A DNA stretch of 64,000 nucleotides, taken from NCBI GenBank assembly GCA_951406725.2, contig OX597833.1:28086001-28150000 (forward strand), given 5' to 3'. Within the stretch, counting starts at the first letter, position 1, and each line of letters starts with the position of its first letter. Below, piece after piece: positions 395-25,960 of this stretch. The translations under genes were made by a program, and so were the position numbers. Below the pieces are notes generated by a model. The model had not been told where the DNA came from and did not search any database. It saw only the letters and a program-made list of their open reading frames with translations. The stretch is from Octopus vulgaris (taxonomy: Eukaryota).

Positions 395-963
395 TATAAG
401 TAAATAAATGGAGTTGAACGAAGATGTTATTAAAATTCTTTTACTTTCGACATATGTTTCGAAGACAACATTGGTTTTATTCCAAAGGAATAAACGGTAT
501 AAAATGCAATCTTCTCGTCAGGAAAGAAAGAGAGCCTATCTCAACAATAAGACATTATAACAATTACGATGACTGCCTAAATGATAAACAGAACGTTATT
601 AAGTGTTTTAAAAAAACCGTTAGTAGATTTGACGTCAAAGGCAGATACCAGGAAGAGAAGGGTTAAAGAAATAATAAGTAAAGAACTAATAAAGAGGGAT
701 GCGTTGGTTGAAAAAATGTTCAAAGGCTTACAAGTAGATTTCTCTATTGAAGTAAAGTGCAAGTTAAACTAACTGTTTAAACTAATTTTAATAACATCTT
801 CGTTCAGCTCCATTTATTTACTTATACTACACAAATTACTACACATTAACCCGGAGTTTCTACCTTTGAATAGGCCGCTTCATCCGTGTTACTTGCGTGA
901 ATTTTGCTACCCTGGTAACTGTTTATTGAATTTTCCATGTTAACGGTAAACATTCATTCATCC
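395..963. mobile_element. Non-autonomous Penelope-like (pLTR-type) element with internal inversion, between (TA)n tracts; same family as 6511-7230
   Basis: Approximately 399-437 is inverted at approximately 784-820. It carries a hammerhead at 444-526, and 840-960 matches 7110-7225 and (inverted) 13615-13692. Confidence 0.7.
444..526 (-). ncRNA. Type I hammerhead ribozyme (minimal helix III, long branched helix II)
   Basis: Minus strand reads CUUUC-CUGACGA-GAAGAUUGCAUU...AAUGUUGUCUUC-GAAA-CAUAUG-UC-GAAAG. Core intact, GUC site, palindromic CAUAUG. Confidence 0.85.
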
Positions 964-1092
964 ATATATATATACATATATATATATAATATATATATAT
1001 ATATATATATATATATATATATATATATATATATATATATATATATATATATATATATGTATATATATATATACATATATATATATATACAC

Positions 1093-1471
1093 GCAAATAA
1101 TAAAATGGAGAGGATACAAAACAACACATCACCCCGTAGACATTCCAGTGTGTCTATTTATTCCAAAGCATTAGAAAGTATTAGAAGAAAACATACACAT
1201 GTAGCAACTGTGTGTTACACACTCATGTATTAATATTACAAAAAAGACCAAACGATCAGTTCCTTACAGCCGTTTCTGCCAAGAGGCAACGAAATCCTCT
1301 TGGCAGAAACGGCCGTAAGAAACTGATCTTTTCTGAAATCTTAATATATGTGTGTATAACACATAGTTACTACATTCTTCTAATACTATCTAAGACTTTG
1401 GAATAAATAGACACACTGGAATGTCTACGGGATGATGTGTTGTTTTGTATCCTCTCCATTTTCTTATTTGC
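1093..1471. repeat. Nested inverted repeats (76-bp outer arms; inner hairpin 1254-1328)
   Basis: 1093-1168 is the near-exact reverse complement of 1396-1471. The inner arms contain GAAACGGCCGTA, a hammerhead 3' half. Confidence 0.85.
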
Positions 1472-1749
1472 CGTATAAATTAAGGGTAAACCACTTTTAC
1501 CACCCGCCCATATATGACACTCAGATGCGAGACTGCCACGCAATAATCAGCATTTGACTATGAATAATTGGGTACACTACCAGCAGTATATTGGATAGGC
1601 ACTATCCCTTGGTTGGTTTCCCAGCCTCTAACTCTCACAGAAATATATGTGTGTGTGTCTGTATGTATGTATGGAAGTATGTATGTATATATGTACGTTT
1701 GTATGTATATACATACACATATATATATATATATATATATATATATATA

Positions 1750-2012
1750 TATAATAACATAAATAATATATAAACATGTGCATATATACATACATATATG
1801 TACATACCTACATCTATATGTATATATACATGCATATATGGTACAGGACACCAAAAAAACGTTGAACACAATGAGAAACGAAAACATAAAAACAAAAACA
1901 TAGAAACGAATTTTTTTCAAACAACGAAAAAACAGAGTACAAGACATACAACATAAGGAATATTCCCCTTCTTCAGTTGTCCCTGTTTCATCTACTCTGC
2001 GTTTTGAAGGTA
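1750..2012 (-). mobile_element. Truncated copy of the ~786-bp non-coding repeat family A
   Basis: Highly similar to 27430-27692 and 28220-28478; flanked by TA-rich microsatellite. Confidence 0.8.
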
Positions 2013-4039
2013 TACATATATATATACACATATATATATACATACATATATATTTACATATATGCATATATTTAACATAATACATGCATATATGTATACA
2101 CGCACGCACATACAGATACCCATACATACATACATACACACACATACATACATATATACGTACATACATACATACATACATACATACATACATACATACA
2201 TACATACATACATACATACATACTAGATTGAAGTCATTATTTAACACTAGTTTAAGAATAAGAAATTGAACATTTACTAATGGAGAAAATCAACGGAAAT
2301 CAGCAGTAAGACAGATTCAAGTTTATCATAAAATTCATGCTGATTGAGACTTAAGTTTCGTTTGAAGGTTTATTCAACCGTTTGACTAAGATGCCAGATG
2401 AGTGTGCGTGTGTGTGTGTGTGTGTGTGTGTGTGTGTGTGTGTGTGTGTGTGTGTGTGTGTGTGTGTGTGTACGTGTGTGTGTACGTGTGTGTGTGAGTG
2501 TGTGTGTTTGTGTATGTGTGTCTATGTGTCTGTGTCTGCGTCTGTGTGTTTGTGTGTGTGAGTGTGTGTGTGTGTGTGGTTTTGTGAGTGTGTGTATCTC
2601 CATGGCTTGCATGCATACAGTCGTGATGAATCGCTACAAACACAGCTTCCCGCGTTAATACGATCATTGAATCAACGACCAGGTTTTTTATTGGACACCA
2701 TATTTTCGACTATAATTTGCCCAGTCCTGGGGATTAAATCCCCGGGTATCCCAGCAAAAGGACATCAGCGGTGTCCGACAGATAGCTTGTTAGATTACAG
2801 AGGTCTGTGTTAGAACCCACATTAAATGTTTAACAAGGCTACCATTATGACAATTTGATAGAAGTTTGATTAGGAAAAAGCTCCACACGAACATAAGCTG
2901 GTGCTTCCATAATTGTTGGGTGGTTCATTAGCGACACTTTTGGTTTGCCACATTTTTAATTAACATGCGGGGCAATGAGATATTTAATAATCACTCACTT
3001 TCTCTCTTTTTCCACAAATACATAATACGTATGTATACATGTATGTATGAATGTGTATATAAGTGTGTGTATGTTTATATATATATATTCATACATACAC
3101 ACACACTCGCATATACACACACATATACATACACACACACACATACAAACACACACATATAATCATGGGAGAAGGTCTTGCTTGTGTTTTGCCATTTAAT
3201 ATACCAGAAACAAATACGTATCTACATATCTCGTTATTAGATAGATGTTATATATCATTATATTATTTATATTATATTGTATTGTATTTATTATATCATA
3301 TTATTGTTGGTTTTTATTCATTTCGGCTACATATGCGTCTATAAGTGCACGGACACGCATACACATACACACATACACACACACCTACATTACAATAACA
3401 ACGACGACGACGATGATACTGGTGGTGGTGGTGGTGGTGTTGTTGGTGGTGGTGGTGGTGTTGTTGTTGGTGGTGGTGGTGGTTCTCTTCCTTCACCCAT
3501 CTGTGGTTGACACCACTTCCGTTCCCATCTCTTCCGCCCTCTTCTCCTCCCCTTCCTCTTCTTTTTCTAAATGTGACACAATGACAGACACTGAAACCCT
3601 AACAAGCTGAAGGCTGCAACCCGCATCTCTGTCCACAGAAGAACACCATCTTTCGCACACACACGCGCCCGTACACACACACGCACACACACACACACAC
3701 ATTCGATATTCTGGTTATTGTTGTTCTTGCTGATGCTACTATTGTTGTTGCTGCTTAGCTGCACATTAACCCTCACTAAATAAAACCTATTATCAAAGCC
3801 GCTCCAGCCATGGCCATCCCGTCTTTTTTTTCTTTTTTCTTACATCAGGGTTTACAACAGACGAGTCAACCTCATTATCCGACGTAGCCTTCATATTTAA
3901 CAGAATAGGCTGATTTGAAGGCAAGGTTTGCCTGCTACCTCTAGCTAATCGCACGACCACCTAGCACCTCATTTATTGACTGGCTATTATTGTAGTTGTT
4001 GTTGTCGTTGTTATTGTTGCTGTTAATCGTGTTGTTATT

Positions 4040-4260
4040 ATTCTTTTACTTGTTTCAGTCATTTTGACTGTGGCCATGCTAGAGCACCGCCTTTTAGTCG
4101 AAGAAATCGACCCTAGGACTTATTCTTTGTAAGCCTAGTACTTTTGCCGAACCGCTTAGTTACGGGGACGTAAACACACCAGCATCGGTTGTCAAGCGAT
4201 GTTGGGTGGGGGACAAACACAGACACAAACATATACGCACACATACATACATACATATAC
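4040..4260 (-). mobile_element. 3' half of microsatellite-containing tRNA-derived SINE
   Basis: Reverse complement of 24530-24745. Confidence 0.8.
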
Positions 4261-24266: not shown

Positions 24267-24746
24267 GCGTAGGAGTGGTAAGTAGCTTGCTTAACAACCA
24301 CATGGCTCTTCCGGGTTCAGTCTTACTGCGTGGCACCTTGGTCAAGTGTCTTCTACTATTGCCTCGGGCCGACCAAAGCCTTGTGAGTGAATTTGGTAGA
24401 CAGAAACTGAAAAAAGCCCGTCGTGTATGTGTGTGTATATATATGTGTGTGTGTGTGTGTGTGTGTGTGTGTGTGTGTGTGTGTGTGTATGTATGTATGT
24501 ATGTATGTATGTATGTATGTATGTATGCGTATATGTTTGTGTGTCTGTGTTTGTACCCCCTACATCGCTTGACAACCGATGCTGGTGTGTTTACGTCCCC
24601 GTAACTTAGCGGTTCGGCAAAAGAGACCGATAGAATCAGTACTAGGCTTACAAAGAATAAGTCCCAGAGTCGATTTGCTCGACTAAATGCGTTGCTCCAG
24701 TATGGCCGCAGTCAAATGACTGAAACAAGGAAAAGAGCAAAAGAGT
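24267..24746 (+). mobile_element. Full-length tRNA-derived SINE with internal microsatellite
   Basis: Homologous to 23173-23632; AAAAGAG-type tail. Confidence 0.9.
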
Positions 24747-24874
24747 ATGATGATGATAGCAGAAAAATACTAGTTAAGTCAAGAGAAAAGTCAGTAAAAA
24801 TAATCTTATTTGGGGTTTAAAGTTCTATTACCATTGCTACTCCTACCACCATCACCACCAACGACAACAATAAT

Positions 24875-25490
24875 AAAGTTTCTCGATGACAAGCGCCAAC
24901 CTCTTGGCTAACACCTTGGCCAACATTTTCAAATCTGCATTGAGCAGAGTGATGGGCCTAAAGTTATCTATTACATACCCCTTGTTTGGATCTTTCTTCA
25001 GCAGCGTTACGGCTCCTCGGCTCACAAAACCGGGGATGCTCCCATTTTGCTGCCAGTTGCAGAACACTGCTGCCAAGACGTCTCCAAACAAGTCTGGCAT
25101 ACAGCTCGTAGGGTAGACCATCCAAACCCGGCGATTTGTCCTTCGAGCATTCTGCCATCGCGTTCCGCACTTCGGCCGTCGTGATGGCACCTTCGCAGCC
25201 CTCTGCCTCTCTTGTCGAGAGTCGTGGCAGATTGTGCAGGAAGGCACTGAAGTCCACCCTACGTTCTCGCTCGCCACTCGTCCCGAACAGTCGGGCAAAA
25301 TGTTGTTGAAAGGCCTCACACATTTTACTTGGCTCGAGTAATTCGCGCCCATGTTCATCTATCAGAGACCGAATGGTGGCTTTGTTGCCCTGTTGCGCCT
25401 CCGCCACCCGGGGCCTCTCGCGCGGCTCCAGCACCTTCATTCCTTAGAGCACGCACCCTAGCCCTGACAACACACCCTTCGTGTTTGGCG
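24875..25490 (-). pseudogene. L1/Tx1-type LINE ORF2 fragment
   Basis: KSPGLDGLPYE; GAVTLLKK..NFRPITLLNADLKMLAKVLAKRL. Confidence 0.85.
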
Positions 25491-25615
25491 TAACTGGTAC
25501 TTATTTAATCGACTCCGAAAGGATGAAAGTCTAAGTCGACCTCGGAACCTAACGGCAGACGAAATACGCTAAGCATTTCGCACGGCGTACTAACGATTCT
25601 GCCAGCTCGCCACCC
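25491..25615 (-). mobile_element. SINE 5' fragment (separate SINE family; copies approximately 33447-33580 +, 36040-36228 -, 42530-42645 -)
   Basis: Head GGCGAGCTGGCAGAATCGTTAG and shared CTTTCATCCTTTCGGRGTCGAT..AAGTACCAGT domain. Confidence 0.7.
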
Positions 25616-25710
25616 TTAATATTAATAACAATCAGGAGGCGGATAATTCATGCATCTCGACTTTATTTCCTCATACGTTTTGGTGATTTAATTATAATTA
25701 TATTGATTAA

Positions 25711-25960
25711 AACGAGACATGCAACATAAAGAATATTCCCCTTCTTCAGTTGTCCCTGTTTCATCTACTCCTTGCCTTCGAACCGTGGAGTAGATGAGAC
25801 AGGGACAACTGAAGAAGGGGAATGTTCTTTATGTTGCATGTCTCGTTTCTCTGTTTGTCTTTTTCGTTGTTCAAAAAAAGTTCGTTTTCTATGTTTTTGT
25901 TTTTATGTTTTCGTTTCTCATTGTGTTCAACGTTAATTTGATGTCCTATACCCATATATA
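25711..25960 (+). mobile_element. Family A copy with 5' fold-back (25711-25849), interrupted by mariner and continuing at approximately 27249-27330
   Basis: ~60-bp inverted arms; family A sequence resumes immediately after the mariner. Confidence 0.75.

Follow-up and report, generated by a model that had tools for sequence, protein, structure and literature searches.

The window analysed here is a stretch of 64,000 nucleotides from Octopus vulgaris (contig OX597833.1, positions 28,086,001 to 28,150,000, forward strand), and all coordinates below refer to it. It consists of AT-rich animal DNA, rich in microsatellites and in mariner and long interspersed nuclear element (LINE) remnants, and carries several families of non-coding elements (A/D, B, C, F and H) with motifs that resemble the hammerhead ribozyme. 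More of these elements than expected begin 3 to 20 nt downstream of a predicted self-cleavage site, which may be the trace of ribozyme-cut templates in a minority of cases.

Element families and architecture

The elements are 5′-truncated arms, most of which have their 3′ ends at or near (TA)n. At six loci, namely B1, B2, C, F, A2 and A3, two arms stand head to head, and each pair combines one short with one long 3′ end. Partial tandems are found in families A (units of ~786 bp), D (~788 bp), C (616 bp) and F (~327 bp). A partial tandem, an adjoining inverted and 5′-truncated copy, unequal 3′ ends and an AT-rich target together make up the anatomy of a Penelope-like element (PLE) insertion, and because this anatomy matches the descriptions given in PMC8557442 and PMC3846280, the elements are assigned to the PLE type. 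They are non-coding, non-autonomous PLE pieces, i.e. retrozyme-like tandems and fragments of the pseudo-long terminal repeat (pLTR), and in themselves are ordinary new members of already known kinds. There is no long open reading frame (ORF) in the translated stretches of A, B, C and D, and no autonomous parent PLE, be it a linked reverse transcriptase (RT) and GIY-YIG ORF or homology to a pLTR, was found for these families.

Retrozymes are recognized by two or more non-coding tandem units in a row that each carry a type I hammerhead. This is the case for family C, which has three such units. No tandem was seen in B or H, family F has one complete motif in its tandem, and A/D do not have the motif as type I. 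Families F (hammerhead at 21820) and H (a minimal motif, four arms) add to the motif-bearing families of an earlier note on this DNA. Profile searches of the window brought up no additional copy of any of these families, and pattern scans for extra copies gave none in metagenome contigs, none in genome contigs and none in three viral scans. A single viral pattern match was dropped, since family B sequence is absent around it. Among 24 sequencing runs (10 studies) that contain part of the A unit, the 20 listed include one with at least half of its words; all of these are contigs and none is RNA, and the matches carry no weight as evidence.

Positions are given relative to the predicted cut, with 0 as the first base 3′ of it and plus values downstream. 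The arms of A/D, B, C, F and H in the window, 19 in all, are listed below. The list was entered by hand, and some ends (H2, B2 and the 3′ end of A2+) are estimates.

1703..2012, minus strand: A1, 5′ break at +7; adjoins TA-rich DNA
25710..25771, minus strand: A2-, with the short 3′ end, 5′ break at about +20 (alternatively +11)
25769..25959, plus strand: A2+, 5′ break at +3; 3-nt overlap with A2-
27382..28533, minus strand: A3-, partial tandem with a unit of ~786 bp and two permuted motifs, 5′ break at about -47
28533..28614, plus strand: A3+, inverted arm, 5′ break at about +235
31092..32280, plus strand: D, a diverged relative of A, partial tandem with a unit of ~788 bp, 5′ break at about -142
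396..784, minus strand: B1-, canonical type I hammerhead, core at 521, predicted cut before 448, 5′ break at about -336
785..965, plus strand: B1+, 5′ break at +11 (or +5), long 3′ end on (TA)n
6509..6935, minus strand: B2-, hammerhead core at 6634, predicted cut before 6556, 5′ break at about -380
6940..7230, plus strand: B2+, core at 6974 with mutated GAAA box, predicted cut before 7052, 5′ break at -101 to -116
13614..13691, minus strand: B3-, fragment, 5′ break at about +123
13899..16031, minus strand: C-, long arm of 3.46 tandem units of 616 bp, 5′ break at +18
16032..16076, plus strand: inverted short arm of C, 5′ break at +146; runs into (TA)n
21345..21580, minus strand: F-, degenerate hammerhead at 21559, 5′ break at about -52
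21583..22017, plus strand: F+, partial tandem of ~327 bp, core at 21820, predicted cut before 21853, 5′ break at about +52
4340..4551, minus strand: H1, minimal hammerhead, core at 4474 with U4C, predicted cut before 4447, break at about -104
43930..44180, plus strand: H2, with a degenerate motif, 5′ break no further downstream than -89
7274..7392, minus strand: H3, 5′ break at -18, which lies within stem II, upstream of its cut
13730..13845, minus strand: H4 (diverged), 5′ break at about +16; 14 nt from (TA)n

Distribution of the 5′ breaks

The count covers these 19 arms, with a further family, E, and a lone motif at 44729 left out. Six arms break in the interval +0..+20, namely at +3, +7, +11, +16, +18 and +20, compared with 0.7-0.9 expected (p ~2e-4 for this fixed interval; all six fall at +3..+20) under four null models that preserve the 3′ end and unit length of each arm. 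Counted by event, the figures are 5 of 13 against 0.7-0.9 expected (p ~0.001). A sliding-window test gives a scan-corrected p of 0.003, or 0.024 if H4 is removed and all families are kept. In the mirror interval, -25..-1, there is one arm out of 19 for an expectation of ~1.0. In addition, 6 of the 21 passes across a cut stop within 21 nt of it, where a constant break rate would give 1.0 (p 4e-4). Since both the null models and the count of passes still show the excess, the short distance between the motif and the 3′ end does not explain it.

The near-cut positions reported in the earlier note are recovered. It had placed the start of the B plus arm about 11 nt past the GUC (785 corresponds to +11, and 778, at +5, would be the start if two mismatches are allowed), the end of the C array 18 nt short of the next cut (the arm stops at 16031, the cut would be at 16049, i.e. 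+18) and two family A copies about 7 nt (2012) and 3 nt (25769) past the GUC, here +7 and +3. Two of the six arms are new, A2- (+20), which belongs to the same event as 25769, and H4 (+16), which was matched at E=0.002 by a profile made without it, from the remaining three members of family H. As that note had also stated, other copies break elsewhere, which is true of 13 of the 19 arms.

At B1, the motif of the minus arm has a GUC triplet and a palindromic stem III, and its predicted cut is read through. The extended stem I of family B pairs out to exactly +11, which is the first base of B1+, and the junction contains an 8-bp palindrome. As a separate observation, the short 3′ end of family B recurs at +47 and +53 at two independent loci.

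The C array has one difference over its 3.46 units. Each unit carries one type I hammerhead-like motif (cores at 15534, 14918 and 14302), with predicted cuts before 15433, 14817 and 14201 and the next expected at 16049. Pairing with upstream bases stops by +3, yet the break is at +18.

In family A, A2- and A2+ are identical at 60/62 bases and their junction lies within a near-palindrome. A2+ is split by a mariner and continues near 27255; the mariner copies at 25947-27301, which makes this interruption, and at 48489-49847 are 94% identical. The two motifs of A3- have GAAG-N4-GUC, an 8-bp stem I and CUGAAGA at 28444 and 27658, with predicted cuts before 28486 and 27700, and both are read through. 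The motifs of D have GAAG-N4-AUU/AUA and a compensated stem I, with predicted cuts before 31203 and 31991.

Hammerhead status of the motifs

The CUGANGA box, GAAA, A15.1-U16.1 and the NUH triplet are present in B, C, F and H, at 521, 6634, the three C units, 21820 and 4474. The motif at 4474 has one core mismatch, and mutated cores are found at 6974, 21559 and 44084. Stems I and II with G10.1-C11.1 are present in B and H1, while in C and F+ the base of stem II holds an A.A mismatch. The C motif combines CUGAAGA, an 80-nt AT-rich stem II, GAAA and a GUU triplet. In the folding model, B, E, F+ and H1 are predicted to fold as or near a hammerhead (penalty 0.6-4.9 kcal/mol), whereas forcing C into this fold would cost 6.1 kcal/mol. 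Rfam gave no matches at gathering score in the window; among the 150 of 210 weak matches listed, nearly all were to microRNA models on palindromes and microsatellites.

Families A and D are different. In a hand-anchored alignment, the CUGANGA box, the NUH triplet (GUC, GUC, AUU, AUA) and stem I are present in all four complete copies, with a constant GAAG-N4-NUH spacing. Stem I is 8 bp long in A and 6 bp long in D, and one of its pairs is compensated (C-G to G-C). All four have GAAG rather than GAAA, which leaves G15.1.U16.1 in place of A15.1. Beside the core, stem II has one pair followed by mismatches in A and three pairs, mostly G.U, in D, neither of which qualifies, nor does stem III, with at most two wobbles and no palindrome. 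The penalties for a forced hammerhead fold are 3.9, 8.1, 11.0 and 18.7 kcal/mol, and the regions have no extra stability relative to shuffles (z -0.8 to +0.8). In the best fold of one of two A copies, stem I appears together with a long distal helix that flanks both boxes. Loose motifs in the permuted order occur 1.3 times per shuffled window.

Perreault et al. (2011) rejected any change in the core and gave at least 10-fold losses for 15.1/16.1 changes, along with some core variants that cut slowly (PMC3088659). By these criteria, the A/D motif is not classed as a hammerhead. It looks like a hammerhead in permuted, minimal form, perhaps a relic one. The proposal that the GAAG motif cleaves in vivo is unproven and unlikely; it rests on two events and a site defined after the fact, in a motif that lacks A15.1 and firm stems II and III. 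Separately, loop I contains a 7-nt purine-rich word, ~15 nt before the CUGA box, that is invariant in 7/7 A/D copies while its neighbours vary (e.g. 27658-27690, minus strand; 31227-31260, plus strand); it is possibly a tertiary contact or a protein site.

Two further motifs are of the U3-A8 type. Family E (17284-17629) has 69-bp inverted ends (98.6%), the left one on (TA)n, and a U3-A8 hammerhead on the minus strand (core at 17543, predicted cut before 17512, penalty 0.6 kcal/mol) that is antisense to its outward-pointing ends, unlike in the other families. The lone hammerhead-like motif lies at 44729-44764 on the plus strand, and ~0.9 such matches are expected per shuffled window. Downstream of it is a GIY-YIG-like remnant of 79 aa (44961-45197, plus strand), unlinked to these families, which has no Pfam match and one relative (E 9e-4). 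It carries a C-x2-C motif.

Origin of the breaks

We propose, with a probability of roughly 0.4, that a minority of the templates was cut by the ribozyme and that the copies were then trimmed at joining. The PLE reverse transcriptase/endonuclease, supplied in trans, would copy the elements. It would cut both strands of TA-rich DNA and extend both from internal RNA starts ~50-340 nt downstream of the hammerhead, and the two complementary DNA (cDNA) arms would be joined head to head; this architecture is what the window displays, and the mechanism as a whole is inferred from the published in vitro system. The 5′ break of each arm would then be the point where its cDNA ended. Most templates would be uncut multimers or circles and would give scattered breaks. 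In about a quarter of the passes, the RNA would have been cut by a weak, probably dimer- or protein-dependent hammerhead, the enzyme would run off the cut end, and 3-20 nt are assumed to be lost by trimming at the join. A cut template with internal initiation would yield a short ‘cut-to-tail’ arm, as A1, A2, B1+ and H4 appear to be, and C- would stem from a multimer with a cut at just one of its sites. The GAAG motif of family A is possibly among the active ones and is the weakest link.

Several lines of evidence favour this proposal. The 5′ junctions of R2 are set by ribozyme cuts and can be read from genomic junctions (PMC3774820), animal retrozymes are reported to yield linear self-cleaved RNAs (PMC7229834), and the Anolis PLE protein is described as extending both strands from internal starts and as assisting its hammerhead (PMC11167929). 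Within the window, H4 (+16) is an extra near-cut case from a family outside the earlier note, and the breaks of family A fall in stem I, on its 5′ strand and in its loop, beyond the place at which a stall is expected to act.

A number of observations weigh against it. The remaining 13 breaks are at -380, -336, -160, -142, -105, -104, -52, -47, -18, +52, +123, +146 and +235, and none of the 19 is at the cut itself (+0..+2). Cut sites are read through in 15 of 21 passes, including three predicted sites inside the C array. Without A/D, the near-cut count is 3/13 (p 0.015-0.024), and without H4 as well it is 2/12 (p 0.09-0.11); the scan statistic without A/D has p = 0.41. Families F and H, which provide the only blind test, have 1/6 against 0.3-0.4 expected (p ~0.3). 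It should be noted that the pattern, the interval and the family A cut were chosen after the data had been seen, and that the p values are uncorrected for this. From published work, Anolis hammerhead mutants inserted normally in vitro and the Anolis RNA reads described neither began nor ended at the cut (PMC11167929), of nine dimers of Xenopus retrozymes, only one was cleaved in vitro (bioRxiv 10.64898/2026.07.22.740005), models of retrozymes favour a circular template, which has no end (PMC7229834), and the R2 junctions described have lost target DNA and gained extra bases, rather than losing the element's first bases (PMC3774820).

We therefore keep the earlier claim of clustering 3′ of the cuts in part: the near-cut interval is nominally enriched (6/19), but most arms break elsewhere and the enrichment is fragile without A/D. 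The excess leans on family A, the motif of which does not pass as a hammerhead. Similarly, the claim that the templates had ribozyme-made 5′ ends is retained for a minority only. The excess survives the full count of the window and cleavage is its best single explanation, but templates in general were not cut, because most passes run through the site.

The excess may be real without any cleavage, if the reverse transcriptase stalls at the folded ribozyme or a bound protein, or if the cDNA folds back on a self-complementary motif, as in family A. We consider this somewhat unlikely. Stalling predicts the same picture as cleavage, because +5..+15 in type I motifs, the 3′ strand of stem I, is where the enzyme first meets the folded ribozyme; the reach of stem I to the first base of B1+ and the lack of breaks at the cut itself agree with it, the latter also with fold-back. 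It does not account for family C, which pairs with upstream bases only to +3 but breaks at +18, or for family A, where stalls are predicted near +40 to +70 and no A arm breaks, and the helices are AT-rich and weak. Fold-back draws on the near-palindromic A2 junction, with its 3-nt overlap and its nearly identical arms, on the palindrome at the B1 junction, and on the interpretation of palindromes at PLE inversion junctions as self-priming (PMC3846280). A simple form of it fails for B1, where the arm with the short 3′ end extends to 336 nt upstream. Twin priming on a single molecule was also discarded: the 5′ breaks of the long arms do not meet the 3′ ends of the short arms (B1, +11 vs +53; C, +18 vs +189; A2, +3 vs +79).

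A roughly constant break rate, with a cluster noticed among few arms and the A cut placed to suit, would also give such a picture, and we consider this combination of chance and selection somewhat unlikely as well. The counts in the canonical-core families without H4, the scan statistic without A/D and the single near-cut arm of F and H all accord with it, as do A/D regions no more structured than shuffles and the frequency of loose permuted motifs in shuffled windows. On the other side stands the scan-corrected p over all arms, with or without H4, and the A site is set by sequence, not by the breaks, with its spacing and 6-8-bp stem I kept in 4/4 complete A/D copies. It is very improbable that the 5′ ends mark where transcription starts within the pLTR, or that they stem from deletions at a later time or from effects of the assembly at adjoining microsatellites. 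The promoter and RNA start of Penelope lie within the pLTR (PMC2377424), and A1 and H4 do end against (TA)n, but transcription starts give no reason for an equal offset from the cut across unrelated families, and B1+, C- and A2 have clean arm-to-arm junctions at which the break has no microsatellite.

Returning to cleavage of a minority of templates, its strongest form would be that PLE breaks record hammerhead cleavage in vivo and that A/D is a working type II-order GAAG variant, presumably activated by the PLE protein; this combination we judge to be distinctly unlikely. If breaks do record cleavage, breakpoint maps would be a genome-only assay of which ribozyme variants cut in the germ line.

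Other repeats in the window

Long palindromes or inverted repeats lie at 10821-11147, 17647-17886, 18111-18254, 1083-1480 and 32547-33220, with arms up to 99.7-100% identical, and contain no hammerhead descriptor matches. A GC-rich 67-bp tandem of 4.4 copies (58764-59053) is located beside an RT remnant (57021-58640).

Comparison with known systems

The hammerheads of PLE pLTRs, as characterized by Cervera and De la Pena (2014, PMC4209133), share with the motifs described here the type I order and a short palindromic stem III. Further likenesses to that description are an extra base before stem II (in H, and in part in F), the U3-A8 core variant (family E), and weak, dimer-dependent motifs found in truncated copies. 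In contrast, B and C have an extended stem II of 40-80 nt, and A/D have the type II order with GAAG. The function of PLE hammerheads has been described as unclear (PMC8557442), in vivo evidence for them was lacking as of PMC4209133, and cleavage was dispensable in vitro (PMC11167929).

Animal non-LTR (long terminal repeat) retrozymes (Cervera and De la Pena 2020, PMC7229834; Li, Clavereau and Pollet 2026, bioRxiv 10.64898/2026.07.22.740005) are likewise non-coding tandems with one hammerhead per unit. Their reported range of 51-972 bp includes the units found here, mobilisation by PLEs has been proposed for them, and the 2026 preprint derives them from PLE pLTRs. The retrozyme model assumes a circular template that has no 5′ end, whereas the elements here, known from DNA alone, have inverted arms of the PLE type, some ending near the cut. 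Linear, cut templates could be told apart from circles by a step in the breakpoints at the cut.

With PLE insertions (Craig et al. 2021, PMC8557442; Frangieh et al. 2024, PMC11167929; Arkhipova et al. 2013, PMC3846280), the elements share 5′-truncated partial tandems, an adjoining inverted copy, unequal 3′ ends (the tail) and TA-rich targets, as far as these features are described there. The published tail is 30-40 bp, while the short and long 3′ ends here are ~110-190 nt apart in most pairs (B1, B2, C and A2), which is far greater. In the literature searched, which included few subscription papers and excluded supplements, there was no reading of PLE hammerhead activity from breakpoints.

A parallel in logic is the HDV (hepatitis delta virus)-like ribozyme of R2 (Eickbush, Burke and Eickbush 2013, PMC3774820), in which the cut sets the template's 5′ end and is read from the junctions. 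R2 has another ribozyme and belongs to another class of element, and its cut defines full-length copies. Unlike in R2, the pattern here would concern at most a minority of arms, and these stop 3-20 nt short of the cut. A step in breakpoints at the cut would be an in vivo footprint like that of R2, and can be tested in any assembled genome.

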